32,331 bases of DNA from Candidatus Uhrbacteria bacterium (GCA_016206235.1 JACQRZ010000015.1:1-32331); one strand, 5' to 3'; numbered from the stretch's first letter, positions 581 to 28,621 are shown. The notes: a model not told the origin generated them from the sequence alone. Numbers and translations: made by a program.

Positions 581-658
581 GTGGGACAGGAAAAAAATGT
601 ATATAGTATTTAGTGCTTGGTATTTAGTATTAAAGGAGAAAGGGTTTTCGTTTTAAAT

Positions 659-692
659 AAAAAAAAGCTCCTTCAGAATTTCTGAAAGAGCT
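659..692 (-). terminator. Intrinsic terminator of the minus-strand gene 719-1315
   Basis: 11-bp stem 666-676 / 682-692 (AGCTCCTTCAG / CTGAAAGAGCT) with a 5-nt loop. The single C:A mismatch on the plus strand becomes G:U in the minus-sense RNA. The stem is followed in the minus sense by a U-run (plus-strand A-run 659-666). Confidence 0.8.
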
Positions 693-718
693 CACCAAAT
701 AACCCTCAATACCAACTA

Positions 719-1315
719 CTATATACTACATACTAAATACCCCACGTTAGATCCGATCAGCTCGGACAATAGGTTCTTGGTGAAGACCTGATGGGTCGAT
801 ATGTCCTGCTCCGAAAAGTTCGCCTGTGTGTTGAAGCGCATTTCGTATATCTGACCATTTTGAACCCGGGTTTTTTTGATATACAACGCCACGATGCCAG
901 CAACATGCGGAGCCGCCATACTGGTTCCATTCATAGAGCAGTAGGCGCTTCCTCTACATGTGGAGTAGACGTTTACGCCTGGCCCACCAATGTCAACCAC
1001 AGAGCCGTAGCTACTGAATCGTGCAAAAGTGTCGTCTGCGCCTTGGGAGGTGGCAGAACCTTTGCCGCCTGCTCCATATGATTGTGATACCAGCATCGCG
1101 CGCTTTACAGATTGAGCAATGGAGGTAATGGCGTCGGAGTAATTCGGAACGTCGTCGTTAAAGACGACGATGTAGCGATTCTTAATGATTTCAGAACTTG
1201 AGTCTTGTACATCATACGAATCGGGAGGAGTAAGAGCGATTGCCGGCAAGACATTCGAAAAGAAAAAAAGAGAAAGAAGCGGTAGGGCAATGGCTCGTGA
1301 AAGACCATTCTTCAT
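719..1315 (-). pseudogene. Subtilisin (peptidase S8) remnant: signal peptide, start of an I9-like propeptide, then only the C-terminal Ser-box region. The Asp and His boxes are missing.
   Basis: The 198-aa ORF has a signal peptide (LPLLSLFFFSNVLPAIA) and a propeptide-like RYIVVFNDDVP. It then jumps directly to FARFSSYGSVVDIGGPGVNVYS...MNGTSMAAPHVAGIVALY, the S8 catalytic Ser box. No D(T/S)G or HGTH box is present, and the length is about half of a propeptide plus S8 domain. The last 7 codons (GYLVCSI) are read from the intergenic repeat arm 722-741. Confidence 0.6.
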
Positions 1316-1550
1316 ACATCTTATTCATATTCATGACTAAGATGTGAAGAAAATTTTTAAGGCACGACAAAAAACGCGATGAATAATCGTTTTTAAAAGC
1401 GACAAGCTTCTTTAAAGACGAGACGTATTCAATATCAAAAGAGATTTTTGTACCTACAGAACACTGCGTAAAGAGCTCTGCATTTTTCGTTCACAAAACC
1501 ACACTAGAGGTAATACGCCTGCTAAACGGGTTTTGTTTTACTACTTACAA

Positions 1551-2135
1551 CTATTTAATGATTTTATCAACAAGACCATAGCTGAGCGCTTCTTCGGCCA
1601 TAAGGAAATAGTCGCGCTCTGTGTCTTTTTCAATTTTTTCAAATGGTTGCCCCGTGTGCTTAGCGAGAATATCGTTGAGCCGTTTTTTGATTCGTAATAT
1701 ATGCTCAGAACGAATTTTTATATCCGTTGCTTGGCCTTCAAATCCACCCATTACTTGGTGAATCATGACTTCGGAGTTGGGAAGTACAAAGCGCTTGCCT
1801 TTCTGTCCTGCTGCGAGCAGCACGGCGCCCATAGATGCTGCCATGCCAATGCAAATGGTTGAGACATCGGGTTTGATGTACTGCATAGTATCGTAAATGG
1901 CAAGCCCTGCTGTTACCGAGCCGCCAGGAGAGTTGATATAGAGCTTAATATCTTTTTCCTTATCTTCACTTTCAAGGAAGAGCAGTTGTGCAATAATCGT
2001 ATTGGCAATATTGTCATCAATAGCATCGCCCAAGAAGACAATGCGTTCTTTGAGTAGGCGAGAGTAGATATCGTATGCCCGTTCGCCGCCATGTGTTTTT
2101 TCAATAACGGTTGGGATGAGTTGATAGTTTTTCAT
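1551..2135 (-). CDS. clpP: ATP-dependent Clp protease proteolytic subunit
   Basis: 194 aa. Motifs [37 protein letters not shown] (catalytic Ser), MIHQ (His) and DTERDYF (Asp). Confidence 0.95.
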
Positions 2136-2140
2136 ATCGA

Positions 2141-2206
2141 GGGTTTAGGGTTTAGGGTTTAGGGTTTAGGGTTTGAACTATACCCTATACCCTACACGCT
2201 ATACCC
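2141..2206. repeat. Periodic hairpin: (GGGTTTA)x5 (2141-2175, last copy GGGTTTG), AAC, then TATACCC/TATACCC/TACACGC/TATACCC (2179-2206)
   Basis: Read directly. It fills the entire rbfA-stop to clpP-start spacer. Confidence 0.9.
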
Positions 2207-2544
2207 TAATTTTCATGATTGATTATATCAAAAATTTCTTCAACCTGCTCAGTTTCATCTTGGACGTTTTTTACAAACGATATGCGTGGTACGTAATGCA
2301 TCTCGAGCGTGTGGTTAAGTGTATCTTGAATATGTCCAGCTGATTTTTTGAGCTGTTTTAAAACGCTACCAGTATATTTTTCCGGTGTTACTGCAATAGA
2401 AACGGTCGCGTGCTTAAGATCGCCAGTCGCTTTCACCTTTGTTATAGTGACGATTGAATTTTTTGGAAATTCTAGCTCACGGACAAGAATGTTGCCCAAC
2501 TCTTGTTTGAGCAGCTCTTGTACTTTTAAAAGACGGTCAGACAT
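2206..2544 (-). CDS. rbfA: Ribosome-binding factor A
   Basis: 112 aa with a typical RbfA N-terminus (R..KVQELLKQELGNIL...EF) and the conserved position immediately downstream of infB. Confidence 0.85.
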   Translation of the reverse strand: MSDRLLKVQELLKQELGNILVRELEFPKNSIVTITKVKATGDLKHATVSIAVTPEKYTGSVLKQLKKSAGHIQDTLNHTLEMHYVPRISFVKNVQDETEQVEEIFDIINHEN

Positions 2545-2545
2545 A

Positions 2546-2611
2546 TGAGTGGTAAGTGATCAGTGTTGAGTGGAAAGACTCTCGTCACTATTCACTCGAC
2601 ACTCGTCACTC
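2546..2611. repeat. Periodic hairpin of the GAGTG/CACTC type, between infB stop and rbfA start
   Basis: Arm 2546-2574 (GAGTGgtaAGTGatcAGTGttGAGTGG) faces arm 2581-2611 (CTCGTCACTattCACTCgaCACTCgtCACTC). The 4-5 bp cores recur at ~8-nt period with mismatched spacers. Confidence 0.8.
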
Positions 2612-2613
2612 CG

Positions 2614-4608: not shown

Positions 4609-4613
4609 CGACA

Positions 4614-4676
4614 GAGTGTTAAGTGGAGAGTGTTAAGTGGAGAGTGTGGGCCACTCATCACTCTTCACTCATTAAC
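4614..4676. repeat. Periodic hairpin: (GAGTGTTAAGTGGA)x2.4 at 4614-4646, complementary arm at 4651-4676. Same family as 28538-28615, in inverted orientation.
   Basis: 14-nt units at 4614-4627 and 4628-4641, then a partial unit at 4642-4646. The reverse complement matches 28581-28613 at 31 of 33 positions. Confidence 0.9.
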
Positions 4677-4792
4677 TAATATGATTGATAGTATGCGTAA
4701 AAATAAGGAAAATGTCAATTCAAGGATTGTTGTTGATCTTTTATTTTCGTGATAATCTTACAATGGATGTGTTCAAATCATAACCTCATAGT

Positions 4793-5128: not shown

Positions 5129-5131
5129 TGT

Positions 5132-8100
5132 ATGGCACGAGTAGAAGGACAAAAATTAAGGATTGATGAAGAAGCTCTTCGGCAGCATCGCGCACTTGAT
5201 AAGCTCGGAGTTCCGAATCCTGACTTATCCGACTTGGAAAGACAAAAGCCGGGACCTGAGGGGCTTTTTGAAGACGCAAAAGAAGCAGTAAAAACTGCCC
5301 TTGAACGGATGAAAACGATTGGTCGTGTTGCCGATGGTATGGAAAAAAGCGTTGATGCAACAGCCATGCTTAAAGGAATACCAGAAAATATCTACAAAGG
5401 ATGGAAATTTCTTGGCGATATCAATCTTTACAATGACTACCTTAAGCGGGCAGAAGAGGGTAAGGGAGGTACATCTCTTTTTGAAAAAGCATTGTTTGCC
5501 GAACTTATCAAACAAAATACTGATACAGAACACAAAGGTACGTATACAAAGGAACAACTTCAGCAATATCTCAACGAACATTTTGTCGAGTCAGTGGTTT
5601 TGAGATTTCTTTCAGTGCGTAGCTGTATCGGCTTTGGCTTAATGGGTGGCGCAGGAATACTCGGGGCATTAACCGGAGCGATTGAAGGCGCATCGATAAC
5701 AAAAAAAATTGTTGACGGTGTTCGTGGTGGTTTTAGGGCAACTGGCGCTGTTATTGCCACGCATGATTTTAAGAAAGCATACGATACTCAATGGGTTGTT
5801 GAGACAACGGAGTTTTTAGAGCTTCAACGTGATGTTGAAGACTTGAAAGCGTATGGCAAAAAACGCGGTGAATCTCAAGATGGAATAAACGAGGCAGTGG
5901 AAGGCTATTTGCGGGGAGAATTCCGAGCAAAAGCAGAAAAGCGCGGTGTTGGGCTTATAGCAGCTGCAACAGATGCCATTGGCAAAAAGGTGACAGGAAA
6001 AGAAAAAACGGAACAGCAGCTGAATACAGATATCCAAAAGATTGCCGACAAGATGTACAAGCAGTATCGGGATCGCGAAAAGAAGCTGGAAGATCCAAAA
6101 GAAATACAGAAACTCTATACTGAACTCAATGCAGTTGCACAGCAGTGGAAGTTTGGCAGAGAAGAGTTGCCAGCAAAAGACACGAAAGCGGCGACAATCC
6201 AAAAAGAAGGTATTGAATCTAGAAATCAGACTGCAGAAAAGATCGATGCGCTAACACAGGAATATAAACAAGTTCTTGGATGTAGCTTTAATCTAGAAAG
6301 TGCAGTCGATAAACGGCTACGAGCGCGTAAAATCGAGCATCTAGCCGCCGTGGCTGGCGCTGGTACAGCGGCATTTTTTGCGCCTGAAATTATCAAAGGA
6401 TTGAGAGGCGGTTGGGAGTTTGTTGCAGGGAAGCTCTGGTCTGGAGCGCATGAGCAGATGGTAGAGCAGGCGAATCCCCCCGTTGCTGTAGTTGAGTCAA
6501 AAACAATTTCTACCCCAAAGCCCGAGATCAACATGGATCTGAATAAACATGGTACAGGCTTAACATATGCGGAAACCGCTTTTAGACAATATCAAGCAAA
6601 CCCAAAAGTGTTTGGAGGTAAGACACCTGAAGAAGTATTGCGATACATTGCGCACAGTCAAGTGGGAGATAGGGGTTTTGCTGCAGAAAATCAGTTCGCC
6701 AAAGATCTCCATAGTCTTAAAATGATGCCGGGTCAGACTATCTCATGGAATGGTGATTCGGGTGATTATGTTACATTTGAGACCCCGAAGTCTGCAACTC
6801 CGCCGCCAACACCAGGGCCAGAAGCTGCGCCAACACCTCCTCAAACACCGGCGCCAACAACACAGCCAACAAGCACGCCGTTTCAGCCTGCTGTTGCGAG
6901 TGGAAGTCCCACCCCATCTCCGACTCCTGACATGTCAGGGAAAGGATGGGGTACAGGAAGAGAATTTACTGGCCAGAATCCTGAAGTAAGTGCTGTACAA
7001 CCAGAGGAAAAAGGAATTGGCAGGGCTATTCGTGATTGGTGGCACGATTTAACACGAGATCGCGTATCGGGCGCAAAGCCCATTTCTTCTGGCAAAGGCT
7101 GGGGTACCGGTGCCACATACAAAGGCATTAATCCTGACTATCCGGAAAATGTTTCTTCTAGCTTGTCTTCTTCAGGAAGTGAGGCTGTGAAGCCAAGAAG
7201 TTTGTCTGGCGCTGAACAATTGGCAAAGCCAACCGCAGGATTTCCTGGCGAAACTGATCATAGTTTTCCCGACGAGCGTGGTTTTGGGACAGGAGCAACA
7301 TACAAAGGTATCAACCCGGATTATCCAGAACAAATCGATACGCGCTCAGATTTTGAAAAAGGTTGGGGGACAGGCGCAACGTATAAAGGACTTAATCCAG
7401 AGTATGATACAAGAAATGACGTGCCAGATGGAAGAGGCTGGGGAACTGGTCGCACGTATACGGGACCAAATCCAGACGCTTCTAATCAAGAAGCGTGGAA
7501 TGAACCGCAAAAAGTCAGTGTATCGCCAGAGGCAAAAACACCATACGGGCCACCTGTGCAGCCTGAGATGTCAAAAGTTGATCCTGAACTTGTAAAGATT
7601 GCTGTTGCAGCTGAGCAGGCTCATGGCTCTACAATAAAAGTGCTTGTTGAGCAATTGGACAAAACAGGAAAAATTGATTTTGGTAAGACACCAGCTCGGA
7701 CATTCATGGATATAGAAAGATTATGGTCGATTTCTCGCCTAAAAGATCCATCAGATTTTAATGACTTCGATAAGATGGTGCAAAGAGCGCATAAATATGG
7801 ATTCGATCATTTGACTGAAAAAGGTGTACATAAAGTTGATTTCGACGGGAATATGACGATTAAAGAGGCGATTACCAAGGCGTATAGTGAAAATCCGCAA
7901 GCGTTTGGTGGTAAGAATTTTAATCAAGTTTTCCATGATTTAGCCAGACAGTACGGCATATATCCTCCTGAACGACTTCCATCTGAAACGAACGCGACTT
8001 ATCTTACGCGATTACATGCGTTTAACGCCGAGATTCAAAACAAGATTGGAGATATAAAAATGCCAAATGGTCAGCACTTGTACTATTCTTCAAGCAAGGA

Positions 8101-9712: not shown

Positions 9713-9723
9713 ATAGTAGTACT

Positions 9724-9752
9724 AAAAAACAGGGCCTTTAAACCCTGTTTTT
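9724..9752. terminator. Bidirectional intrinsic terminator between convergent genes (giant ORF / rplT)
   Basis: AAAAAACAGGG-cctttaaa-CCCTGTTTTT: a GC-containing stem flanked by an A-run on one side and a T-run on the other. Confidence 0.7.
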
Positions 9753-10111: not shown

Positions 10112-10122
10112 ACATTTCTTTT

Positions 10123-10202
10123 AGCTTACAGCTTGCGGCTTATAGCTAGCAGCAAGCATTTAATTTTCTTCTGTAAGCTGAAAGCTGAAAGCTATCAGCT
10201 TG
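10123..10202. repeat. Periodic hairpin of the AAGCTGA type, between rpmI stop and rplT start
   Basis: Arm 10123-10153 (AGCTTACAGCTTGCGGCTTATAGCTAGCAGC) faces arm 10171-10202 (CTGTAAGCTGAAAGCTGAAAGCTATCAGCTTG). About 22 of 30 positions are complementary, with AGCT-centred helices. Confidence 0.8.
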
Positions 10203-10203
10203 A

Positions 10204-10401: not shown

Positions 10402-10410
10402 ATCTTTTGA

Positions 10411-10497
10411 TATTAACAATGTAACCATATAACAATATAACATTCTATTCTAAAAGAAGTTTTTATTGCTATATTGTTAAATTGCTAAATTGTTACA
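10411..10497. repeat. Periodic hairpin of the TAACAAT/ATTGTTA type, between infC stop and rpmI start
   Basis: Arm ~10413-10442 (TTAACAATGTAACCATATAACAATATAACA) faces arm 10463-10497 (TTATTGCTATATTGTTAAATTGCTAAATTGTTACAG). Confidence 0.75.
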
Positions 10498-10499
10498 GT

Positions 10500-11057
10500 T
10501 TATGATTTTTTTGAACCTATAATGACGTTCAGTCGTCCGCCCTGCATACTGATTGGACTCTCCATGTTTGCCGGTACACCCTCTTCTTCTAATCGCTTCA
10601 CAAATTGGCTCATGATATCACGGGCGAGATTGGTATGTTGCCGTTCTCGTCCTCGAAGCACCATTTCCAGCTTTACCTTATCATTACCCTCTAAAAATTT
10701 TTTTGCCTGGGCAATGCGCACCTCTAAATCATGCTGGCCAATACGCAAAGAGATGCGCAAGCCTTTTACTTCAGTCTTTTTTTGGCGAGCCCGTGCCTTC
10801 CGAAGTTCTTTTTCCAGTGTGTATTTCAACTTGCCGTAATCCATGATTTTACACACGGGAGGAACTGCTTTTGGCTCAATTTCTACCAAGTCTGATTCCA
10901 CCTCTTGTGCGCGTTGCAGAGCCTCTTCAAGAGGCACAACGCCAACATGCTCGTTGTTTTCATCGAGAAGGCGCACTTCTAGAGCAGTAATTGCTCTATT
11001 GGTGCGATAGGTGCGTGTTGGTGCCTGCGTTGGTGCGCGGCGGAAATTTTTTCGCAT
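10500..11057 (-). CDS. infC: Translation initiation factor IF-3
   Basis: 185 aa: INRAITALEVRLLDENNEHVGVV, plus the C-domain. It sits in the canonical infC-rpmI-rplT order. Confidence 0.95.
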   Translation of the reverse strand: MRKNFRRAPTQAPTRTYRTNRAITALEVRLLDENNEHVGVVPLEEALQRAQEVESDLVEIEPKAVPPVCKIMDYGKLKYTLEKELRKARARQKKTEVKGLRISLRIGQHDLEVRIAQAKKFLEGNDKVKLEMVLRGRERQHTNLARDIMSQFVKRLEEEGVPANMESPISMQGGRLNVIIGSKKS

Positions 11058-11069: not shown

Positions 11070-11390
11070 TTATTTACTTACTTTTTTCCAGATACCTAGA
11101 ATTAAATTCATTTTCTTTTTTGTTGTCCAGCCTTTGATCTGCTTTTCTCGTCTTCGAGACTCGAGAAGTGTATCATATGTCTCAAAGTAAACAAGCCATG
11201 CAGGCAGTCGGTTTTTTGTCCAAATTGCGGCCGCGCCGGAGTTATGTTTATTTATTCTTTCTTTTAAATTGCTGGTTGATCCGCAGTATAAACTACCGTC
11301 ACTGCAGTTTAATAAATAAACATAAAATTGATTTTGCCCTTCGATAAACTCAGGACATTCGACTTCTTGAAAGCAATATTTTTCAAGCAT
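11070..11390 (-). CDS. GIY-YIG nuclease family protein (UPF0213/YhbQ-like)
   Basis: 106 aa: FYVYLLNCSDGSLYCGSTSNLKERINKHNSG...WLVYFETYDTLLESRRREKQIKGW. Confidence 0.85.
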   Translation of the reverse strand: MLEKYCFQEVECPEFIEGQNQFYVYLLNCSDGSLYCGSTSNLKERINKHNSGAAAIWTKNRLPAWLVYFETYDTLLESRRREKQIKGWTTKKKMNLILGIWKKVSK

Positions 11391-11540
11391 AGAAGGTCAA
11401 AGACCATGTCTTCGATTCCATTCGACATGCTCATGGCCTGAGTTTATTGAGGGCTGAGGGATGAGTCCTCTCTTCGAGCCTGAGTCTCAGAGCCGAAGGC
11501 AGGCTCAGACTCGAAGAGAGCCCTTCGATTCGCTTTTAGT

Positions 11541-11561
11541 TTTAAAATGGCCAAAGGCCAT
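11541..11561 (-). terminator. Candidate terminator just 3' of the tmRNA
   Basis: In the minus sense, ATGGCC-ttt-GGCCAT (plus 11547-11561) is followed by TTTAAAA. The stem is short (6 bp) and the U-tract is weak. Confidence 0.4.
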
Positions 11562-11582
11562 GAGCGAGCGTAGCGAGTCGAA

Positions 11583-11982
11583 TGGAGATGGCGGGAGTTG
11601 AACCCGCGTCTGGAAAGCAACAAAAATCGAATGTACAAGCGTAGCCGATCGTTGCATACAATAAAAGGGTACAGAGATCGGCGTCCATCCTTTTATCGCG
11701 GCTTACGGTATGCCAATGATGATCCAGTAAGCCAAAAGACCATCAATGTCCTGAAGATATGACACCCGTTCTTTTCTATCAGGAGTCAAAAAGACAGATG
11801 GCAGCGGCTTAGATTAAGCAGCTACAGTCGCAAAGCTTGGGACAAGGTTTGAAGCCAAGACTCTCGCTTTGCTTACAAATGTGTTGACATTTGAATGGTT
11901 CTTACCAGTTTTTTCGAGTCTAGGTAAGCTGCTCGGCTTGAACGATTGTTGTTGGATCTTCCCATCAAAGCCCAGCATCCCC
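11583..11982 (-). ncRNA. ssrA: tmRNA (transfer-messenger RNA), 400 nt, CCA not encoded
   Basis: - **5' end (minus sense):** GGGGATGCTGGGCTTTGATGGGAAGATCC...
- **3' end:** ...GCGGGTTCAACTCCCGCCATCTCCA.
- **Acceptor stem:** GGGGAUG pairs with CAUCUCC, giving the alanine-identity G3:U70 pair with an A73 discriminator.
- **T-arm:** GCGGG-UUCAACU-CCCGC.
- **Tag frame:** an internal frame ends ...SNLVPSFATVAA-TAA (stop at 11814-11816). A possible resume codon is GCG at 11865-11867, giving ARVLASNLVPSFATVAA, but the resume point is uncertain.
- **Context:** smpB lies immediately upstream. Confidence 0.93.
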
Positions 11983-12132
11983 GTTCGACTCAGTTTGTCT
12001 TTCGACAAACTTCGCTCACGACCTTCGGCCAGTCAAACTGAGTCGAACGTCTTGAGCGAACGAAGTGAGTCGAAAGGCCAATGGTCTTTGGCCAAGCCGA
12101 ATCGAATGAGTCCTGAGCCTGTCGAAGGGCCA

Positions 12133-13807: not shown

Positions 13808-14365
13808 ATGCGAACCCACTTTAACGAAAAGATCCTTTTGTACAAGGTTCGTAAGGGAGATGCCGAAAGTTTCGGTCCGATTTTCGATCATTATCACGAA
13901 AAGATCTATCGGTTCATCTACCTCAAAGTGCCGACCGGACAGGACGCGGAGGATATAACAGCCGAAACATTCCTCAAGGCATGGCAGTACCTTAAAGAAC
14001 AAAAAAAGATTTCATCACTCCAGGCGTTTTTGTACCAGATCGCGCGCAATCTTGTCATCGACTTTTACCGCAAGCGCGGAACAGTTATTGAGTCGATCGA
14101 TGAGCAGGAAATTGTGATTGCCGATAGGGGAGATCTTACGCTTGAAGAGAAGGTGATGCTCAAAAGCGACATGGTCCAGATCGAAGCGGGATTGCGGCAA
14201 CTCAAAGATGCCTACCGCGAAGTGATCGCCCTGCACTACCTCAACGAGCTCTCTCTCGCAGAAACGGGAAACGTTATCGGCAAGTCTCATGGAGCAACGC
14301 GCGTGCTTCTGCATCGCGGAATGAAGGCGCTCAAACAAATACTTGCAGAAACGAAACAGAAATAA
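13808..14365 (+). CDS. ECF-type RNA polymerase sigma factor (sigma-70 regions 2 and 4 only)
   Basis: 185 aa. Region 2: FGPIFDHYHEKIYRFIYLKV...DAEDITAETFLKAW. Region 4: REVIALHYLNELSLAETGNVIGKSHGATRVLLHRGMKALK. Confidence 0.9.
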   Translation: MRTHFNEKILLYKVRKGDAESFGPIFDHYHEKIYRFIYLKVPTGQDAEDITAETFLKAWQYLKEQKKISSLQAFLYQIARNLVIDFYRKRGTVIESIDEQEIVIADRGDLTLEEKVMLKSDMVQIEAGLRQLKDAYREVIALHYLNELSLAETGNVIGKSHGATRVLLHRGMKALKQILAETKQK

Positions 14366-14370
14366 ATATC

Positions 14371-14463
14371 AAATACCCAATATCCAATATCCAATTAATT
14401 CCAAAACTTTAAAAACTTATAAAAAGTTATTTGGAAATTGGGAATTAGGAATTGGTTATTTTT
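14371..14463. repeat. Periodic hairpin (CCAATAT units vs GGAATTR units) between the sigma stop and the next start
   Basis: Arm 14371-14405 (AAATACCCAATATCCAATATCCAATTAATTCCAAA) faces arm ~14429-14463 (ATTTGGAAATTGGGAATTAGGAATTGGTTATTT). There is also an inner AACTTT/AAAGTT stem. Confidence 0.7.
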
Positions 14464-14469
14464 TTAACT

Positions 14470-15498: not shown

Positions 15499-15578
15499 AC
15501 AGCTTGTAGTTGGTAGCTTTTAGTTTGTAGAAGCGAGTAAGGTTAGTCCTGCAAGCTGCAAGCTGGAAGCTGACAGCT
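15499..15578. repeat. Periodic hairpin of the GCAAGCT type, downstream of the 14470-15498 CDS
   Basis: Arm 15499-15530 faces arm 15549-15578 (CTGCAAGCTGCAAGCTGGAAGCTGACAGCT). There are 15 Watson-Crick pairs plus 6 T:G positions, which become G:U only in the plus-sense RNA. Confidence 0.8.
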
Positions 15579-15725
15579 TTTGGTTGCCAGCTCATTATAA
15601 AATCTTACCGTTGTTATCTCGGTGACGAATCGAGAAAACGGAAGTCCGCGGCGACAAAGGTCGATTGGGTGAAACCCCGAGTCGTCGATGGTAAAATCGA
15701 ATTAATCTAAGAAAGACGATTTATT

Positions 15726-20432: not shown

Positions 20433-20497
20433 TTACCCTTGACACGGCAGTATAAACCTATAACCTAGTCCCTATAATCTATAATCTCATACACTCT

Positions 20498-20980: not shown

Positions 20981-20984
20981 TATC

Positions 20985-21012
20985 AAAACGCGCTTCACTA
21001 GCGCGTTTTTTT
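20985..21012 (+). terminator. Intrinsic terminator
   Basis: AAAACGCGC-ttcacta-GCGCGTTTTTTT: a GC-rich stem followed by T7. Confidence 0.8.
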
Positions 21013-21100
21013 GTACTTATACACAGACACGGAGAAATAAGTAGTGTATACTGTAAAGAACCTGGCAGACATGCCATGTTTAACTATTTGTAATTAACTA

Positions 21101-23353
21101 ATGCAAAATACTATGCAACATGCGATTCGGAAACGAAGGAACGCGGCTCTTGCTGGAGCACTGTCCTTCGTTTTTTTGTTTAGCGGCACTACGCAGGCGC
21201 ACGCCGCGCTTACGTTTGATGCGACATCTGTTACAAGCGATGGCGCACTTTCGTTTACTACAGCGTCAAACGGAAGTCTTACCATTACACCAAACGGTAC
21301 AGGCGACATAATACTCTTAACCGATGGAGATTCACAACTTTCACTCAGAGGCAACACTCCATTGGAGTTTGAAGGACTTACCGTCGATGCCAATGATACA
21401 AGTTTTATTATTACCGAGCCAACAGGAGCGAGAACTATCACTTTTCCAGATGCAAGCGGGGATATCGTGCTTAATTCAACCACGCAGACATTGACGAACA
21501 AAACTCTCACCTCGCCGCGGCTTGGCACCAGTGTTCTCGATACCAACGGAAACGAGTTGTTGCTTCTGACTGCAACAGGAACCGCAGTCAATGAAATTAC
21601 TCTTGCAAATGCAGCAGCAGGCGGTTCACCACTATTGGCAGCTTCTGGTAACGATGCAACAATTGATCTTGAACTTCGGGCAAAAGGCGCGCGCGATGTG
21701 ATGATTACCACAAGCGTTGCCAATGCTGATCACCTCCATTTGCGCCCAGCAACAGGTGGAGGGGCAGCCTTTAACGGAATTATTACAAGCGCAGACATTA
21801 CTGGCGCAGACAAGACATGGACGTTCCCGGACGCAACCGGTACTGTTCCACTCTTGCAGACGGTAAATTCATGGACAAATACTCAGATGATTTTTACGAC
21901 CACAGGTACCGATGACCAGTTTAACCTTTATGTGACTCCAGGTGGCGCGGGACGTTTTGCGGGAAGTCTGACACCAGCAGATCTTACTGCAAATCGAACA
22001 TGGACGCTGCCAAATGTGGACGGAAATGTTGTTACTACGGGTGATACCGGAACTGTTACAAGCGCGATGATTGGCGCAAACGTAGTCGGCATGGCAGACC
22101 TCGCTCGTGGAACCAATGGACAGATTATTGTTGCAAACACTGGCGCTGACGCAGCATATGTCTCGCTTTCAGGCGACGCAACATTGGCAGCAAACGGCGC
22201 TCTTACAATCGCAAACGATGCAATTACCTCAGCAAAAATTGCTGCAAACGTAGTCGGCATGGCAGACCTCGCTCGTGGAACCAATGGACAGATTATTGTT
22301 GCAAACACTGGCGCTGACGCAGCATATGTCTCGCTTTCTGGCGACGCAACATTGGCAGCAAACGGCGCTCTTACCATTGCAAATGATGCAGTTACTTCAG
22401 CAAAGATCGCGGCAAATGTAGTAGATGCGTCTGATTTGGCAGCAACGCTCACCTTTGCAGATAACGATCTTATTGATCTTGGTTCGGTGACGTATGCTGA
22501 TGGCACCGCTGGTGGATTGAAGTTGCCAAATGTTGGTGCAACACCGACCGATGTTACCGGAGCTACAGAAGGATATATTGCGTGGGATGAAACAAATAAC
22601 CTCTTACTCCTCAACGATGGCGCGGCATGGAATGCACTCGCAGGTAGCGTGAGCGGAAACAACACATGGACCGGCACTAATGCATTCAATGGAGCATCAG
22701 TTACGCTCGGTGATGCTGTTACAGATGGTCTCACCGTTAATTCAGCGATATTGGGAGCAAATGCATTAATTTTTGATGGCGCAACAGATAACACAAATGA
22801 AATTACATTGGCCGTAAGTGATCCAGGTGCAGATGTCACTGTTACATTACCAGCACAAACAGGAAACATTGCGCTCGACACCGGTGGCGAAACAGTAGGT
22901 AATGTCATTCTTGCAACTGAAATTGACACCAGTGCTGAATTCAAGGCAATAGTGGGCGATGAAACAGGAACAGGAGGAGCGCTCGTATTTGCAACATCTC
23001 CGACAATCGCGACACCAACCTTTACTGGCAATGTCACAAAATCAGTGCAGGTAGGCGTAACAGCCTTTGCAGGAGGCGGTCAAGCTAACGCAGTGGCAAT
23101 CACAGCAGATATCGTTGAGGTTACAACCGTTGCAACTGCCGCAGATTCAGTAAAGTTGCCTGCAGCAGCAGCGGGACTTCAAGTTACGGTCGTCAATAAA
23201 GCAGCAGCGAATTCAATGAATCTTTTCCCGGCAGCTGGAGACGCGATTAACGAAACTGCCGCTGATACAGCGTATGCAGTTGCAGCAAAAGTGAAGGTGA
23301 TTTGTACTGCTTTTGATGCGACGAACTGGGAATGTCAGAAGATGGCTCGTTAA
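21101..23353 (+). CDS. Secreted fibre-like protein (750 aa) with phage-tail-fibre-like motifs
   Basis: It has a signal peptide (…SGTTQAHA/AL) and a recurring xTxT(F/L)Pxxx G(D/T/N)(I/V) motif (TITFPDASGDIVL, WTFPDATGTVPL, WTLPNVDGNVVT, VTLPAQTGNIAL). The QTLTNKTLTSP motif also recalls phage tail-fibre / structural proteins to me. Composition is Ala/Thr/Gly/Asn-rich. The C-terminal ~110 aa globular region ends ...CTAFDATNWECQKMAR. Confidence 0.75.
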   Translation: MQNTMQHAIRKRRNAALAGALSFVFLFSGTTQAHAALTFDATSVTSDGALSFTTASNGSLTITPNGTGDIILLTDGDSQLSLRGNTPLEFEGLTVDANDTSFIITEPTGARTITFPDASGDIVLNSTTQTLTNKTLTSPRLGTSVLDTNGNELLLLTATGTAVNEITLANAAAGGSPLLAASGNDATIDLELRAKGARDVMITTSVANADHLHLRPATGGGAAFNGIITSADITGADKTWTFPDATGTVPLLQTVNSWTNTQMIFTTTGTDDQFNLYVTPGGAGRFAGSLTPADLTANRTWTLPNVDGNVVTTGDTGTVTSAMIGANVVGMADLARGTNGQIIVANTGADAAYVSLSGDATLAANGALTIANDAITSAKIAANVVGMADLARGTNGQIIVANTGADAAYVSLSGDATLAANGALTIANDAVTSAKIAANVVDASDLAATLTFADNDLIDLGSVTYADGTAGGLKLPNVGATPTDVTGATEGYIAWDETNNLLLLNDGAAWNALAGSVSGNNTWTGTNAFNGASVTLGDAVTDGLTVNSAILGANALIFDGATDNTNEITLAVSDPGADVTVTLPAQTGNIALDTGGETVGNVILATEIDTSAEFKAIVGDETGTGGALVFATSPTIATPTFTGNVTKSVQVGVTAFAGGGQANAVAITADIVEVTTVATAADSVKLPAAAAGLQVTVVNKAAANSMNLFPAAGDAINETAADTAYAVAAKVKVICTAFDATNWECQKMAR
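22070..22405 (+). repeat. Near-identical in-frame tandem duplication, 2 x 168 bp (56 aa), with a degenerate third copy starting at 22406
   Basis: 22070-22237 and 22238-22405 both encode I(G/A)ANVVGMADLARGTNGQIIVANTGADAAYVSLSGDATLAANGALTIANDA(I/V)TSAK. By my by-eye comparison about 10 nucleotide differences separate the copies, and one stretch of >90 nt is identical. Confidence 0.95.
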
Positions 23354-23382
23354 TCTAACCTAAACCATTCAATCCATAACCT

Positions 23383-24513
23383 ATGTTGATATCAACTAAG
23401 ATCAAAGTTGGATTGGGGATAGCTGGTTTAGGAGTGCTCGGTTTGATGTCGCCTGTATACGCTGGCGATCTCAACTGGAGCGCTGATACCCCTATCAGTG
23501 TTGGTGGTCAGAGTCTCACCATTCGATCAGGCTCAGAGGCAACCAACATGGTTGTTGGAACTTCAACCTTAACTGTAACAGTTGCTTCGGGAGATAGCTT
23601 TACTCTTGCTTCATCAGAGCGAAAAGCTTTTGTTACCAGTCCAAATATTGATGGAACCTGCACCTCATCTGAAAATGCTATAACCGTTACGGGGGCAAAC
23701 ACCGTTGTGATTACTCCTCAGGGGACTGTCTGTGTAAGGGCTGTTGCCGTAGTTGGCGGCGGCGGTTCAACACCTGCACCAGCTCCAACAGCACCCGCAC
23801 CTACCCCAACTCCAACAACAAAGCCTGCTCCAGCCCCAACTTCCACAACCACTTCAGCTCCAGCACCTACGCAAACACCAGCAGCACCAGTTGACCGCGC
23901 TGCGCAATTAACAGCAATTCTTGAAGAAGCAAAATCGATATCGGGTGTAAGTAAGGAATTGCCCAAGGCTATTGAAAAGGGCGTACTTACCCTCGAAGAA
24001 AAACTCTCGGTCTTAGAGGTTAAACCTACAGAGGTCGTGCTTAAAGTTATTGAAAAAGTTGTCCCCGAAACGGTAACTCGTGCAACCGCGGCAGTTGCCA
24101 CAAAGTTTATTGCCGATGGTACGCCCACAACCATGCAGCTTGGCGCAGGGGAGCGCGCAGGCGTTGTGAATAGTTACAAAGCGGCTTTTGGTAGCCTGCC
24201 TACAAACGAAGCAGAGTGGCAGGATGTTGTCAAAATCGCTAACGGACGTTTTCCAAGCCAAACAAACGCTGAGTCAGAAAAACGCGCAGAGCTTTCGTTT
24301 AAGACCATCTACAACCGCGCTCCAAATCGTAAGAGTCCCAATGATGACGCAGCAGTTGTGGTAATGGCCTATGGTTTGAGAACCGCAACTCGTAATATGC
24401 AAAGTGAGTCAGCAGCTATCAAGAGCTACAAGGCGATCTTCAAGAGAGCACCGGTTGCAGCCACTGCTTGGGATGCAGTTCGTGCTATAGCATATTCCGG
24501 AGCAAAACGATAG
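23383..24513 (+). CDS. Secreted/anchored protein: N-terminal beta domain, Pro/Thr/Ala linker, C-terminal triple-repeat domain
   Basis: 376 aa. Signal/anchor GLGIAGLGVLGLMSPVYA; linker GGGGSTPAPAPTAPAPTPTPTTKPAPAPTSTTTSAPAPTQTPAAP. The C-terminus has three related segments (SYKAAFGSLPTNEAEWQDVVKIANG / SFKTIYNRAPNRKSPNDDAAVVVMAYG / SYKAIFKRAPVAATAWDAVRAIAYSG). Confidence 0.7.
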   Translation: MLISTKIKVGLGIAGLGVLGLMSPVYAGDLNWSADTPISVGGQSLTIRSGSEATNMVVGTSTLTVTVASGDSFTLASSERKAFVTSPNIDGTCTSSENAITVTGANTVVITPQGTVCVRAVAVVGGGGSTPAPAPTAPAPTPTPTTKPAPAPTSTTTSAPAPTQTPAAPVDRAAQLTAILEEAKSISGVSKELPKAIEKGVLTLEEKLSVLEVKPTEVVLKVIEKVVPETVTRATAAVATKFIADGTPTTMQLGAGERAGVVNSYKAAFGSLPTNEAEWQDVVKIANGRFPSQTNAESEKRAELSFKTIYNRAPNRKSPNDDAAVVVMAYGLRTATRNMQSESAAIKSYKAIFKRAPVAATAWDAVRAIAYSGAKR

Positions 24514-24554
24514 AAACACGGGAATTGACATTCACAAGAATGTCATTAAGATAC

Positions 24555-24583
24555 AACCAGCTTTTACGCTGGTTTTGTCTTTT
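24555..24583 (+). terminator. Intrinsic terminator
   Basis: AACCAGC-ttttac-GCTGGTT followed by TTGTCTTTT. It is preceded by a second hairpin, TGACATTC-acaa-GAATGTCA. Confidence 0.6.
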
Positions 24584-24594
24584 ATGCACATACT

Positions 24595-25293: not shown

Positions 25294-25363
25294 GCTAGTA
25301 ACGAGTAACGGGTAACGAGTAATTGAAATTGGATATTAAGTATTGAAATGCTATACTTTATTC

Positions 25364-27430
25364 ATGATAAAGAGAGGTAAACCTTTTCGTTTTTGTAGTA
25401 TTTTACTCACCCTTGCTATGTCGGTTGGGTGGTTTTTTAGCGCATTTCAGAACGTCTATGCGGCCCAGGTTGTCCCTAATGATCCATTATTTCCTAAACA
25501 GACATACTTAACGGAAATGAATGTTCCGGATGCATGGCAGTTCACAACCGGATCAGCGCAAACCGTGGTTGCCGTGCTTGATTCTGGTGTTGATATGTAT
25601 CATCCTGATCTCCGCGCAAACATTTGGACAAACGTCGGAGAAATTCCTGGTGATGGCATTGATAATGATAACAATAGCTATATTGATGATGTTAACGGCT
25701 GGGATTTTATTACCGAAACGCCAGATCCCACACCGAAGTTTAGCGATGATTTTATTGTTGCAGGCGTGCATCATGGCACATTGATTTCCGGGGCCATTGC
25801 AGCTGCAGGTAATAACGGGCTGGGCATCACCGGTATTTCATGGAGATCAAAAATTCTGCCATTGCGCGTGCTCGATAGCAATGGCGAAGGCGATGTGGTA
25901 ACGGTTGTGCAGGCGATTAACTATGCGATTGCTAAAAAAGTAGACGTCATTAATCTCAGTTTTGTTGGCGAGACCGATAGCTCGTATTTACGAGAGGCGA
26001 TCAAGCGTGCGACAGACGCCAATATTGTGGTCGTTGCAGCATCTGGCAACGATTCCGTTCATCGTACAGGAAATAATACAAATACAAAACCCTTTTACCC
26101 TGGCTGCTATAGCCTTTCCAACCCGAGCCTCATCAGTGTCGCATCGCTTGACCACGATGGTGTCAAGGCGAAATTTTCAAACTTTGGTAATTGCATCACT
26201 CTTTCAGCGCCGGGTGTTGAATTTCAGTCAACCCAGGTTGTTCGGTATGATAGAGTAGGATTTGATACCTATTACGGCAGCGGGTGGTCGGGCACATCAC
26301 TTTCAACCGCAACAGTATCTGGTGTTGTTGCGCTCATGCGTTCGATCGATCCTCAACTGAAATCAAAACGCGCTGTGAGTATTTTGAAAGAAACGTGTGA
26401 CTCAATCGAGTTTATTAACTTTAGTTATATTGGGCAGTTGGGATGCGGACGAGTGAACGCGGCACGAGCAGTTGCGCAGGTAGTTACGGAAGCTCAAGTG
26501 AAGAATCCGTCAAATCCCCTATGGAATACATCGGGCACTATTGTCGTCTCGTCTGGAGATGGAAAGCGGCCATTTCAGTTTTTTGATAACAACGGCGCGA
26601 AGCGAACTGATCTCAAAACTACCTTTCTCCCATTTTCGCACACACGCTCATCATTTGCCGTCTACACTGGAATTGCCGGGCAGTTGTATTTGGCAGCACC
26701 CGCGCAGGGAGGCGAACCGTTAGTCAGATTCTACGACAGTAGTTTTACAAAAGTGTATGAGTTCTTGGCATTCGATAAACGATTCCGAGGAGGCGTATCA
26801 TTGGCGGTTGGCGATGTCGACGGCGATGGCATCAATGAGATCGTTGTCGCGGCAGGAGCAGGCGGAGGACCGCACGTGAAAATTTTTGATTCATTCGGAA
26901 ATCTTAAGGGACAATTTTTTGCCTATCACGATTCATTTCGTGGCGGTTTGCGCGTAGCCGTGGGGGATGTTAATAGCGATGGTGTAGCTGAAATTATCAC
27001 AACACCAATAAAAGATATCTTAGGCGATGTGCGAGTATTTACGAGTAAGGGGCATCTTGTAACACAATTTTTTGCCTACGGCATAGGACGAAATGCGCGC
27101 AGTGCTGAGGTTCGTATCGGTGATTTGCTTGGAGATGGAACGAACTCTATTATTACCTCGACAGTGTCTGATGGGGGAGAGGTGCGCATTTTTAACTCCA
27201 TTGGACAGTTTAAAAAATCATTCTTTCCTTACGGTACGTCGTATAGAAATGGCATTTCACTTGCGGTAGGTGATTTGAATCAGGATCACACGGCCGAAAT
27301 TGTCGTTGCGCCCGTTCGCAATGCGGGGCCGCATGTAAGGATGTATAACGGCGACGGACGATTGCTGGGCCAATTTTTTGCCTATGAGAAAAAATATCGA
27401 ACAGGAATACAGGTGCATGTTATACAGTAA
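25364..27430 (+). CDS. Secreted subtilisin-family (S8) serine protease fused to C-terminal FG-GAP/VCBS-type repeats
   Basis: Catalytic boxes VAVLDSGVD (Asp), HHGTLISGAIAA (His) and GWSGTSLSTATVSGVVALM (Ser). The C-terminal half has four or more repeats of the form GDVDGDGINEIVVAAGAGGGPHVKIFD / GDVNSDGVAEIITTP / GDLLGDGTNSIITS / GDLNQDHTAEIVVAP...GPHVRMYN. Start taken at the ATG at 25364 rather than the track's TTG at 25343. Confidence 0.9.
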   Translation: MIKRGKPFRFCSILLTLAMSVGWFFSAFQNVYAAQVVPNDPLFPKQTYLTEMNVPDAWQFTTGSAQTVVAVLDSGVDMYHPDLRANIWTNVGEIPGDGIDNDNNSYIDDVNGWDFITETPDPTPKFSDDFIVAGVHHGTLISGAIAAAGNNGLGITGISWRSKILPLRVLDSNGEGDVVTVVQAINYAIAKKVDVINLSFVGETDSSYLREAIKRATDANIVVVAASGNDSVHRTGNNTNTKPFYPGCYSLSNPSLISVASLDHDGVKAKFSNFGNCITLSAPGVEFQSTQVVRYDRVGFDTYYGSGWSGTSLSTATVSGVVALMRSIDPQLKSKRAVSILKETCDSIEFINFSYIGQLGCGRVNAARAVAQVVTEAQVKNPSNPLWNTSGTIVVSSGDGKRPFQFFDNNGAKRTDLKTTFLPFSHTRSSFAVYTGIAGQLYLAAPAQGGEPLVRFYDSSFTKVYEFLAFDKRFRGGVSLAVGDVDGDGINEIVVAAGAGGGPHVKIFDSFGNLKGQFFAYHDSFRGGLRVAVGDVNSDGVAEIITTPIKDILGDVRVFTSKGHLVTQFFAYGIGRNARSAEVRIGDLLGDGTNSIITSTVSDGGEVRIFNSIGQFKKSFFPYGTSYRNGISLAVGDLNQDHTAEIVVAPVRNAGPHVRMYNGDGRLLGQFFAYEKKYRTGIQVHVIQ

Positions 27431-27503
27431 AGGTTAGAAGGTTGTTAGGTTAGTAGGTTCATAGGAGCCTGCTAACCTTCTAACCTCTTAACCTTTAAAC
27501 CTA
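27431..27503. repeat. Periodic hairpin of the AGGTTAG/CTAACCT type, filling the spacer up to 4 nt before the next ATG
   Basis: Arm 27431-27465 (AGGTTAGAAGGTTGTTAGGTTAGTAGGTTCATAGG) faces arm 27469-27503 (CCTGCTAACCTTCTAACCTCTTAACCTTTAAACCT). The 5-bp AGGTT/AACCT helices recur at 7-8 nt period. Confidence 0.85.
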
Positions 27504-27507
27504 CAGT

Positions 27508-28536
27508 ATGCTGCAACCAAAAGGTGCCGGACGCCCGAATGTGCTTGTTATCGGCGGAGCCGGATTTGTCGGCTCAAACCTCTGCGAATTTTTGCTTGAG
27601 CGCTATAACGTGATTTGTGTTGATAATTTTTTTTCGGGAAAAGAGCAAAATATCGACACGCTGCTTTCACAGCCACATTTTGAATTTATCCGCCACGATA
27701 TCACTGAAAAGCTTGATTTTAAGAATAGTTCCTCGCTCGAGCGTTTTAATGTGGCATTTACTGGCATCCAATACGTCTATTACTGTGCAAGTCCGTCAAA
27801 TCCAACGTTCTTTTTAAAAGCTCCGCTTGAGCTTCTCATGGCAAACTCGGTTGGGGTAAAAAACGCCCTTGATATCGCTCTTTCGTATCGAGCGCGGTTT
27901 ATTCTTGTATCGGACGCATTGGTGTATGGTTCATTGGTTCACCAAAAACCCTCGGAAGACATGGCAGGAGTTGTTGAGCATTCGGATCCGTTGCGGATTT
28001 CCATTCAGGGCAAGCTTTTTGCAGAAAGTCTAGCAGAAAGCTATCAGAAGTTGTACGATCTCGAGGTTTTTATTGTGCGACTTGGAACATCGTATGGCCC
28101 GCGCATGCATCTGGATGACTCGCGATTTGTTCCATTTCTTGCTACCCGATGTTTGCAAAATGAATCGTATACCATTTCAGATGAGATACGCGTTGGTTCG
28201 TATTTGTATATATCAGATGTTGTTGATGCGTTGGAAAAGATTGCGCTTGCAGAAAATAGTTTTTGCGTTTATAATCTTGGCCACGGTTCTGGATATTCCG
28301 TTCAGGAGGTTGTGCAGAGCCTTGCCACGCTAACCGGCACTCATGCGCAATTCAGTCTCGGAAAGCCTGAAGCCTCCGATGCGACTCTGCAGTACGCATG
28401 GCAGGCGCAAACCGCTGAAATGAATATTGAAAAAATAAAAACGGAGCTGGGATGGTTTCCTGTAGTACTTCTTGATGACGGGCTTGAAAAAACGATTGAC
28501 TACATGAAATCCTTGCGAAACGTCCGAGTCCACTAA
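27508..28536 (+). CDS. UDP-glucuronate decarboxylase (UXS)-like extended SDR with substituted catalytic residues
   Basis: 342 aa. Motifs VLVIGGAGFVGSNL (Rossmann), VDNFFSGKEQNI, YGPRMHLDDSRFVPF and LGWFPVVLLDDGL are all UXS-like. However, the TSE box reads SDAL and the YxxxK box reads SIQGK. Confidence 0.8.
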   Translation: MLQPKGAGRPNVLVIGGAGFVGSNLCEFLLERYNVICVDNFFSGKEQNIDTLLSQPHFEFIRHDITEKLDFKNSSSLERFNVAFTGIQYVYYCASPSNPTFFLKAPLELLMANSVGVKNALDIALSYRARFILVSDALVYGSLVHQKPSEDMAGVVEHSDPLRISIQGKLFAESLAESYQKLYDLEVFIVRLGTSYGPRMHLDDSRFVPFLATRCLQNESYTISDEIRVGSYLYISDVVDALEKIALAENSFCVYNLGHGSGYSVQEVVQSLATLTGTHAQFSLGKPEASDATLQYAWQAQTAEMNIEKIKTELGWFPVVLLDDGLEKTIDYMKSLRNVRVH

Positions 28537-28537
28537 T

Positions 28538-28615
28538 GAATGAGTGAAAAGTGAAGAGTGATAAGCGAAAAGGAATTGAACACTCTGCACTTAACACTCT
28601 GCACTTAACACTCAT
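28538..28615. repeat. Periodic hairpin: GAGTGA-type arm at 28538-28567 and (CACTCTGCACTTAA)x2.4 at 28581-28613. Same family as 4614-4676.
   Basis: 14-nt units at 28581-28594 and 28595-28608, then a partial unit at 28609-28613. It ends 6-8 nt before the ATG at 28622. Confidence 0.9.
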
Positions 28616-28621
28616 AAAGAT

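Follow-up and report, generated by a model that had tools for sequence, protein, structure and literature searches.

The 32,331-nucleotide (nt) stretch of a Candidatus Uhrbacteria genome analysed here (GCA_016206235.1, JACQRZ010000015.1:1-32331; hereafter the window) carries at its gene junctions a set of periodic hairpins, that is, inverted pairs of tandem arrays built from units of 7-8 nt. These periodic elements make up 881 of the 2683 intergenic nt, or a third, and a comparison with related genomes shows that they are recent additions to the junctions at which they stand. We consider it an even bet that they are dispersed, slippage-grown palindromic repeats which, if active, would serve as hairpin punctuation in operon mRNAs. 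The window, a 32-kb sample of its source genome, is a gene-dense (91.7% genic) part of the genome of an ultra-small Candidate Phyla Radiation (CPR)/Patescibacteria bacterium; it encodes DUF5663 and DUF5667 proteins, and its gene layout is syntenic with that of Candidatus Uhrbacteria assemblies. Its minus strand carries the gene orders clpP<-rbfA<-infB and rplT<-rpmI<-infC<-(GIY-YIG)<-transfer-messenger RNA (tmRNA)<-smpB, with plus-strand genes from 12.6 kb onward.

Tandem Repeats Finder (TRF) detected arrays of period 7, 8, 14 or 16, with 2.1-5 copies, at every arm listed in a preliminary description of this DNA, and all ten loci listed there are inverted pairs of tandem arrays in which complementary units converge, a few nt apart. 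The features are listed below, where z compares the minimum free energy (MFE) of the whole spacer with 200 dinucleotide shuffles per spacer, computed on both strands, and ORF stands for open reading frame.

599..740, minus strand: outer periodic arms around a canonical terminator, GTATTTA-type at 599-631 and AATACTA-type at 708-740 (TRF, fold); spacer z -5.2/-5.8
693-665, minus strand: terminator between the 599-631 and 708-740 arms (terminator scan)
2133..2208, minus strand: rbfA-to-clpP hairpin, 5' arm TAGGGTA x4, 3' arm AAACCCT x5, perfect; z -5.2/-4.7
2545..2613, minus strand: infB-to-rbfA hairpin, GAGTG/CACTC family (TRF, folding, alignment)
4609..4680, minus strand: hairpin in the infB 5' untranslated region (UTR), GAGTG/CACTC family, 14-mer CACTTAACACTCTC x2.5
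10112..10203, minus strand: rpmI-to-rplT hairpin, AAGCT family; z -3.1
10402..10499, minus strand: infC-to-rpmI hairpin, period 8, AACAAT/ATTGTT family; sense z -5.3
14363..14469, plus strand: sigma-to-DUF5667 hairpin, CCAATAT arm followed by GGAATTN arm; z -3.1/-3.2
15499..15585, plus strand: hairpin directly after the DUF5667 stop codon, AAGCT family; MFE -37.5, 8 G-U pairs in sense
27428..27507, plus strand: S8 peptidase-to-epimerase hairpin, period 8, AGGTTNNN x4 and NNNAACCT x4; z -6.3
28534..28621, plus strand: epimerase-to-htrA hairpin, GAGTG/CACTC family, 14-mer AACACTCTGCACTT x2.5, perfect; z -6.4/-8.5
20450..20490, plus strand: unpaired AACCTAT/ATAATCT array, ending 7 nt ahead of the start of ORF 20498; spacer z +0.3
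23354..23382, plus strand: unpaired CTAACCT-type array, occupying the entire 29-nt spacer up to the ATG at 23383 (read in sequence)
25294..25322, plus strand: unpaired GTAACGA x3.7 array, beginning directly after the stop codon of a TPR gene (TRF)
29888..29903, plus strand: GTAACGA x2.3 array, coding for the final htrA residues and the stop codon (TRF)

The arrays themselves lie at 2140-2174 (AGGGTTT x5, 100% matches), 2178-2208, 2581-2611, 4613-4647 (14-mer x2.5, 100%), 4652-4672, 10171-10193, 10414-10442, 10465-10495, 14365-14395, 14431-14455, 15501-15530, 15549-15578, 27430-27502, 28537-28613, 599-631 and 708-740. Coding sequence, although it makes up most of the window, yields a single weak array of periods 7/8/14/16, at 276-291. 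Each unit consists of a conserved 4-6-nt core and a variable 2-3-nt linker, and mismatches between units concentrate in the linker columns while cores are invariant (p about 0.005, a statistic inflated by the non-independence of duplicated 14/16-mers); in the S8 peptidase-to-epimerase hairpin, likewise, cores are invariant and linkers variable. Several arrays are perfect over 2.5-5 copies, in keeping with recency. Upstream stop codons lie within arrays at rbfA (TAG, 2178-2208), at htrA (TAA, 29888-29903) and at infB of a second assembly, L096 (13309-13343). The 15499..15585 hairpin is followed by 140 nt of other spacer, and a promoter-like site (25330-25357) lies downstream of the GTAACGA array at 25294-25322. 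The locus at 601-741, initially described as a looser member, does have paired arms in a folding spacer, but these arms enclose a terminator, and an ORF encoding an S8 peptidase fragment runs with its 3' end into the arm at 708-740. As a side observation, the (AGGGTTT)x5 array at 2140-2174 is identical to the plant-type telomere repeat TTTAGGG; this match is almost certainly a coincidence, though it could trip automated contamination or telomere screens.

Folding of the spacers confirms that the periodic hairpins are real and far beyond chance. At least 8 of the 10 spacers with listed hairpins have z between -3.1 and -8.5 on at least one strand, the best-strand values being -5.2 (2136-2205), -4.4 (2545-2613), -3.1 (10112-10203), -5.3 (10402-10499), -3.2 (14366-14469), -3.7 (15499-15725), -6.3 (27431-27507), -8.5 (28537-28621) and -5.8 (487-718). 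The spacer at 4609-4792 reaches only -2.2 because the hairpin is its first 70 nt, the other two thirds being promoter DNA. The predicted folds contain 17-35 pairs, arranged as helices of 3-7 base pairs (bp) between small internal loops. Arrays of period 7/8 occur at 0.43 per kb in the window; across 74 loci from other phyla, 883 kb in all, the density is 0.02 per kb.

The placement of the hairpins between co-directional genes of conserved operons, and their ending a few nt ahead of the next start, also hold up. Predicted stems begin 0-7 nt past the stop codon, and most finish 7-14 nt ahead of the next ATG (7 nt in the case of the MFE stem upstream of clpP). They are distinct from intrinsic terminators: they lack U-tracts, and the terminator scan lists no periodic hairpin and places canonical sites elsewhere. 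No periodic hairpin occurs at a convergent junction; such junctions have canonical terminators instead. Three of the four canonical terminators first proposed were recovered by the scan, at 665-693(-), 20985-21009 and 24555-24574, while the fourth, at 9724-9752, is visible in the sequence but unlisted by the scan.

The elements fall into a small number of sequence families. The preliminary description proposed that unit sequence is free and that only the architecture is conserved; in fact a small set of core motifs recurs both within the window and in another genome. Several cores do coexist, as claimed, but units are not specific to a locus: GAGTG occurs at three loci, AAGCT at two and GTAACGA at two, and the vocabulary is common to L096. 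Within the window the recurring cores are GAGTG, AAGCT, AGGTT/AACCT, GTAACGA and AACAAT, each family occupying two to four loci of the 32 kb. The three GAGTG/CACTC elements (2545-2613, 4609-4680 and 28537-28621) align end to end in one orientation, two of them having the 14-mer CACTTAACACTCTG in common. An alignment of the AAGCT pair, likewise in one orientation, agrees at 59 of 98 positions. The GTAACGA arrays at 29888-29903 and 25297-25322 have a 14-mer in common, and the array at 23354-23382 has a 9-mer in common, in opposite orientation, with the element at 27431.

The same families extend to other genomes. L096 (GCA_016206095.1), a second Uhrbacteria assembly whose IF2 is 65% identical, is rich in hairpins: they occupy the four translation-gene junctions and rny-ymdB, flank the tmRNA gene on either side and occur at further places. 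The window and L096 for the most part have different units at corresponding junctions, but the families AGGTT/AACCT, AAGCT, AACAATG, GAGTGAC and GAATC are common to both. For example, the infC-to-rpmI junction of L096 carries an AGGTT-type hairpin that has the 16-mer CTAACCTTCTAACCTC in common with the S8 peptidase-to-epimerase hairpin of the window. Overall, 20 canonical 10-mers are common to the two sets, compared to 1.1 in shuffles and 0.2 in a coding control. An AAGCT-type element stands at rpmI-rplT in the window, in L096 and in a third genome, L117, and the GAATC-type hairpins of two further assemblies, L094 and L001, align at 56 of 89 positions despite occupying different junctions. Outside these genomes, the exact 16-mer CTAACCTTCTAACCTC has 20 matches in IMG/VR, none of them in a periodic hairpin and most from one unrelated viral family, a number that by rough estimate is near the chance level.

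L096 also contains, at 5770-5905 and 10425-10545, a hairpin element of ~130 nt that resembles a miniature inverted-repeat transposable element (MITE). Its terminal inverted repeat is GAATTACGAAAC, and it lies inside the loops of two different periodic hairpins, which have AACATTGTT-type and AGCTA-type arms. Elhai in 2008 is said to have described something similar, small dispersed repeats inserted into heptamer arrays of Nostoc.

Comparison with relatives indicates that the elements were gained recently. The nearest relative found, a groundwater organism, is 88% identical in L20, 79% in IF3, 83% in IF3 and L20 combined, 67% in RbfA and 66% in the epimerase. In this genome infB and rbfA overlap by 8 nt, and the spacers measure 18 nt (rbfA-clpP), 9 nt (infC-rpmI), 27 nt (rpmI-rplT), 11 nt (S8-epimerase) and 21 nt (epimerase-htrA, as in L092); no hairpin is present in any of these spacers. 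In three further syntenic relatives (L088, L091/L094 and L095) the translation-gene junctions, four in number, measure -4 to 25 nt. Across relatives, rbfA-clpP is 18 nt, 18 nt, 12 nt or an overlap, infB-rbfA is an 8-nt overlap, 1, 23 or 15 nt, infC-rpmI is 6-20 nt, and rpmI-rplT is 3-27 nt in five other relatives. The conserved RNA element implied by the preliminary description is therefore not supported, as the closest relative and three syntenic relatives lack hairpins at the same junctions. Elsewhere, the epimerase-to-htrA junction of L094 carries a GGAATC-type hairpin that includes a GGGAATC unit. Counted over a wider set of periods (7, 8 or 14-16) than the 0.43 per kb given above, array density is 0.56 per kb in the window, 0.93 in L096, 0 in L095 and 0.05-0.15 in the others.

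In a rough tree of IF3 and L20, the window and L117 each pair with a hairpin-free sister (L087 and L118, respectively) and L096 sits on a separate branch, so that several gains or many precise losses are needed. Since close relatives differ at the same junctions, hairpin turnover is fast relative to protein divergence. An RbfA from another sample, 88% identical (P0002, on a 741-nt ENA contig), is annotated with a 23-residue N-terminal extension (MISGKCQVNCSALITLHSSLH...), and its spacer to the next gene is 17 nt. This extension back-translates to what is plausibly a hairpin of the GAGTG/CACTC type, in which case the gene caller would have read through the element. An independent 1.5-kb Logan contig (L083), identical to the window and the only second assembly found, carries the same infB-rbfA element without change and ends inside the rbfA-clpP element. 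A metagenome scan with RbfA returned only two distant loci (38-41% identity) and no orthologous spacers.

The elements are also oriented with respect to transcription. Of 20 hairpins taken from five genomes, 16 have their G-rich arm after the stop codon and their G-poor arm against the start (binomial p=0.012), a bias that is only suggestive because family copies are not independent; the sigma-to-DUF5667 hairpin is among the few with the C-rich arm leading. The start-proximal half is free of ATG, GTG and TTG in 9 of 13 junction hairpins, and in 9 of 13 every frame is closed no more than 33 nt from the stop codon. None of the 26 genes of the window is preceded by a Shine-Dalgarno motif (GGAG, GAGG or AGGA at -22 to -4), and leaders are G-poor (about 3 G in 25 nt). 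That prfB (29926-31006) retains the classic programmed +1 frameshift site GGAGG-N3-CTTTGAC at 29981-29995 implies that the anti-Shine-Dalgarno sequence works. A promoter match (TTGACA-17-CATACT) at 4718-4690 on the minus strand has its predicted start about 5 nt upstream of the infB hairpin, which would make this hairpin the 5'-terminal stem of the mRNA. On account of ACCTCC in L096 arms and GATCAC in the rbfA element, mimicry of the 16S rRNA 3' end, or pairing between Shine-Dalgarno and anti-Shine-Dalgarno sequences, was considered but set aside, as most families do not fit. GC skew, inspected for replication versus transcription orientation, gave no clear switch. In L117 (9649-9726), a strong Shine-Dalgarno site (TAGGAGGTTAAATG) stands ahead of rpmI, a feature that no gene of the window shows, and Shine-Dalgarno usage may therefore differ among these lineages.

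The view that the design is unlike any described repeat has to be given up, as heptameric intergenic arrays have been described before (PMC4692102, PMC4679880) and are the nearest known counterparts. Xanthomonas has about 180 intergenic GGGAATC arrays, and at 70-75 loci close to the ends of ORFs two arrays form an inverted pair (Rehm et al. 2015, PMC4692102); heptameric simple-sequence repeats are over-represented in many bacteria, an excess ascribed to polymerase slippage (PMC4692102). The window elements resemble these arrays in their head-to-tail 7-nt units, facing arrays and potential stem-loop (PMC4692102). About 90% of the Xanthomonas arrays are intergenic, near ORF ends and mostly between co-directional genes, which is similar here; their length and sequence vary among close relatives. 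However, throughout the Xanthomonas genome it is essentially one G-rich unit that is used, which has been studied for its ability to form G-quadruplexes, and its loci are mostly conserved between species, whereas the window has at least seven cores in 32 kb, with period 8 as common as 7 in some families, and its elements fill stop-to-start junctions of essential operons and are missing from the sister genome. G3 tracts occur only in the GGGTTTA array at 2140-2174; the GAGTG, AAGCT, AACAAT and AGGTT cores lack them, and most units cannot form quadruplexes.

Cyanobacteria reportedly carry heptamer repeats of their own, the STRR repeats attributed to Mazel et al. in 1990. TAACTGA arrays, known from Beggiatoaceae, cyanobacteria and some Bacteroidetes, stop a few nt short of start codons, have no Shine-Dalgarno site and overlap upstream stops (MacGregor 2015, PMC4679880). 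As in those arrays, the window elements supply upstream stop codons, close three frames, are sited before ribosomal protein genes, show an orientation bias to the downstream gene, and have a patchy phyletic distribution suggesting horizontal spread (PMC4679880). TAACTGA arrays, however, are nearly always single, direct and predicted to be unstructured, with one inverted case in 170 in BOGUAY, while the typical element of the window is a folding inverted pair and many unit families coexist. In Nostoc, the expression of reporters is influenced by heptamers that lie close to start codons (bioRxiv 10.1101/2022.06.06.494920).

Among mobile elements the nearest analogue is the REPIN, an extragenic element that forms hairpins, occurs in multiple families and is moved by RAYTs (Bertels and Rainey 2011, PMC3116915). 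The window elements are similar to repetitive extragenic palindromic (REP) sequences and REPINs in being extragenic imperfect palindromes arranged as inverted doublets, in forming hairpins in single-stranded DNA or mRNA, in falling into several families, in their presence or absence at the level of genomes and in their operon positions. The REPs of E. coli are known mRNA stabilisers. On the other hand, REPINs consist of two 20-25-nt REPs whose head sequence is conserved, and they are linked to RAYTs and present in many near-identical copies, whereas the arms here are internally periodic, copies are about 60-70% alike and no terminal motif is common to the families. A scan of 20 window ORFs against Pfam (six ORFs lay outside it) found no RAYT (Y1 transposase). 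In phage T7 early mRNA, imperfect RNase III hairpins with 20-30-bp stems and internal loops stand between cistrons, and their cleavage leaves a protective 3' stem. This likeness concerns a possible mode of action and not ancestry, since T7 sites are not made of tandem units and cleavage of the window hairpins is hypothetical.

Other candidates were compared as well. With respect to MITEs, flanking TA dinucleotides are common, as expected in AT-rich spacers, copies are not near-identical, and the sequence upstream of an IS630-like helix-turn-helix gene (1-486) is unrelated to the elements. CRISPR arrays, with 23-47-nt repeats and unique spacers, are excluded by the contiguous 7-8-nt units. TIGR arrays are long, with dual-spacer units of about 36 nt and box C/D motifs, and lie beside a Nop-domain tas gene (PMC12045711); the elements here stand singly at scattered sites, each 70-100 nt long and with a period of 7-8, and no Nop domain was matched among the 20 ORFs scanned. 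Consistent with the earlier statement that they belong to no named RNA family, tmRNA is the sole match in the window at Rfam gathering thresholds, the E-value mode adding only sub-threshold matches to pre-miRNA and plastid 3'-UTR hairpins. In the literature on CPR/Patescibacteria, we found no description of such elements. The elements of the window unite heptamer/octamer arrays, inverted pairing, stop/start placement and a multiplicity of families, all of them traits of the classes compared above, and are set apart by the number of cores that coexist, by the filling of essential-operon junctions and by the occurrence in CPR.

For the origin and possible action of the elements, including their dispersal, their folding in vivo and any benefit, we infer the following course of events. 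Elements would have been inserted at formerly tight or overlapping junctions in some Uhrbacteria lineages but not in their sisters, the array often providing a new stop codon for the upstream gene. Copies may arise by dispersal of existing elements, possibly by REPIN-like mobilisation or templated copying, and would then lengthen and be remodelled by slipped-strand mispairing, which favours units of ~7 nt. Lying inside operons, they would be co-transcribed, and the mRNA would fold into bulged hairpins of 20-35 bp that draw the stop and the next start together. Because the organism probably initiates on G-poor leaders without Shine-Dalgarno sites, the only orientation to survive would be the one placing the G-poor, start-codon-free arm beside the start. 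The most likely effect would be a REP-like punctuation of the mRNA, with cistron ends protected or defined and the stems potentially acting as RNase III-type substrates; in addition, the stem might mask the downstream leader until the upstream ribosome unwinds its base.

A number of observations weigh against this account. Neither strand is favoured in stability, the sense strand being more stable in 5 of 10 hairpins (G-U pair counts by strand, 24 versus 13, are not decisive), and the AGGTT family gave no covariation signal in a test without power because the cores are invariant; these two results, therefore, give no sign that the RNA fold as such is under selection. At 601-741 the outer arms flank a terminator and so cannot pair in the terminated transcript. 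Four spacers hold single arrays with no partner arm and no fold, and the hairpin is accordingly not obligatory. Members of one family agree at only about 60-70%, which is not the pattern of young mobile elements, the presence of AAGCT at rpmI-rplT in three non-sister genomes is poorly explained by random dispersal, and no transposase, RAYT or target-site duplication was found. Furthermore, the evidence from the source genome spans only 32 kb.

A first alternative is that the elements are pure mutational by-products, produced in place by slippage biased to units of ~7 nt together with fold-back template switching, with no dispersal and no function, and with similar cores since few are tolerated near stop and start codons. 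This explanation is unlikely, though it has to be reckoned with. It accommodates the perfect arrays over 2.5-5 copies, the higher-order 14/16-mers, the single-arm arrays, the rapid turnover among close relatives, the lack of a favoured strand in stability and the (ACGT)x3 already present in the short spacer of one relative, and it agrees with the slippage proposed for the heptamer excess in many bacteria (PMC4692102, citing Mrazek 2007). However, growth in place does not account for exact 14- to 16-mers and twenty 10-mers that link non-orthologous loci, including loci in genomes with ~65% protein identity, nor for the full-length alignment of three GAGTG-type elements. The clustering of mismatches in linkers beside invariant cores (with the caveat on duplicated 14/16-mers given above) also argues against it, and the all-or-none pattern among genomes would require a lineage-specific mutator.

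A rather unlikely alternative, in our judgement, is that the hairpins are dedicated, selected RNA elements, such as RNase III sites, factor-dependent attenuators or translational-coupling switches, recruited repeatedly and with functional periodic bulges, for example for single-site cleavage or the tuning of stability. Their stop-to-start placement in essential operons and in the infB 5' UTR, the orientation bias relative to transcription, the recurrence of an AAGCT-type hairpin at rpmI-rplT in three non-sister genomes, the conserved cores with free linkers and the pre-miRNA-like shape would all fit, as would the bracketing of the tmRNA gene by hairpins or periodic arms in L088, L091 and L096. 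Yet the sister genome and three other syntenic relatives manage without hairpins on spacers of 0-27 nt, no compensatory changes are seen, the antisense strand is more stable in half of the cases, one arm pair is split by a terminator, and unstructured single arrays occupy equivalent positions.

A more ambitious proposal, which we regard as doubtful, is that some Uhrbacteria have exchanged overlapping or abutting junctions for a genome-wide system of modular punctuation hairpins with a small vocabulary of 5-nt cores, spread by a mechanism that targets stop/start junctions. The hairpin would then be a coupling device for genes without Shine-Dalgarno sites, in which the terminating ribosome opens the base of the stem and exposes a G-free landing pad, and the stem would also set the bounds of mRNA processing and stability, including around tmRNA.

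It is very improbable that the elements are DNA-level protein-binding arrays, with iteron-like cores recognised by a DNA- or single-stranded-DNA-binding protein, for instance of the cold-shock type (~7 nt per monomer), in a nucleoid, replication or transcription role. A conserved core at regular 7-8-nt spacing would suit such a protein, cold-shock proteins have been proposed to occupy heptamer arrays at one protein per heptamer (PMC4679880), and a partner is suspected for the Nostoc heptamers (bioRxiv 10.1101/2022.06.06.494920); but at least 6-7 unrelated cores in 32 kb could not be read by one sequence-specific protein, the period is off the helical repeat, and it is stop and start codons, not promoters, with which the elements are associated. 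Finally, an assembly or amplification artefact, such as chimeric fold-back joins, is scarcely credible: short-read assemblers do break at such repeats, as in the Logan contig that ends inside the rbfA-clpP element, but the infB-rbfA element is identical in that independent assembly, like elements occur in the unrelated assemblies L096, L117, L094, L091 and L001, and the elements respect reading frames and start codons.

Several neighbouring features of the window and its relatives were also recorded. The IS630-like helix-turn-helix transposase gene at 1-486 is a fragment running off the window start. Adjoining it, a 198-residue ORF (719-1315) matches only part of a subtilase domain, while relatives have a full S8 peptidase downstream of clpP, and this ORF is probably a gene truncated by insertion. 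A 750-residue ORF of unknown function contains a 168-nt tandem repeat (22076-22422, 2.1 copies, 94% identical), which amounts to an in-frame duplication of 56 residues. A GIY-YIG endonuclease ORF (11070-11390) lies between infC and the tmRNA gene and is missing in every relative examined. The tmRNA flanks (11391-11579 and 11983-12132) are strongly structured (z -4.3 to -5.7) and carry a different repeat, GAGTCGAAWGG, which includes a 32-nt direct repeat on either side of the tmRNA gene (11554-11585 and 12046-12077) and long-range inverted repeats. In L088 (8132-9238), periodic GAGTACT/GTGAACT arms (x4) surround smpB and the tmRNA gene, with one complementary arm pair bracketing the entire tmRNA gene and a 23-nt inverted repeat, AAAAAAGAGCCGGTGATGAAGTA, bracketing smpB.

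In practical terms, these elements break short-read assemblies and can mislead gene callers, producing spurious N-terminal extensions such as, apparently, that of a relative's rbfA. The vocabulary common to divergent genomes, the all-or-none distribution and the orientation with respect to starts without Shine-Dalgarno sites offer handles on how such repeats spread and on a possible role in translation or mRNA decay. Heptamer repeats, so far a phenomenon of Xanthomonas, cyanobacteria and Beggiatoaceae, are here extended to a fourth group that is very distant from these, and the findings document that repeats entered ribosomal and translation-factor operons in the time in which sister species diverged. 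Even if the elements are no more than selfish repeats grown by slippage, CPR genomes, streamlined as they are (92% genic here), would still be gaining hundreds of nt inside essential operons.

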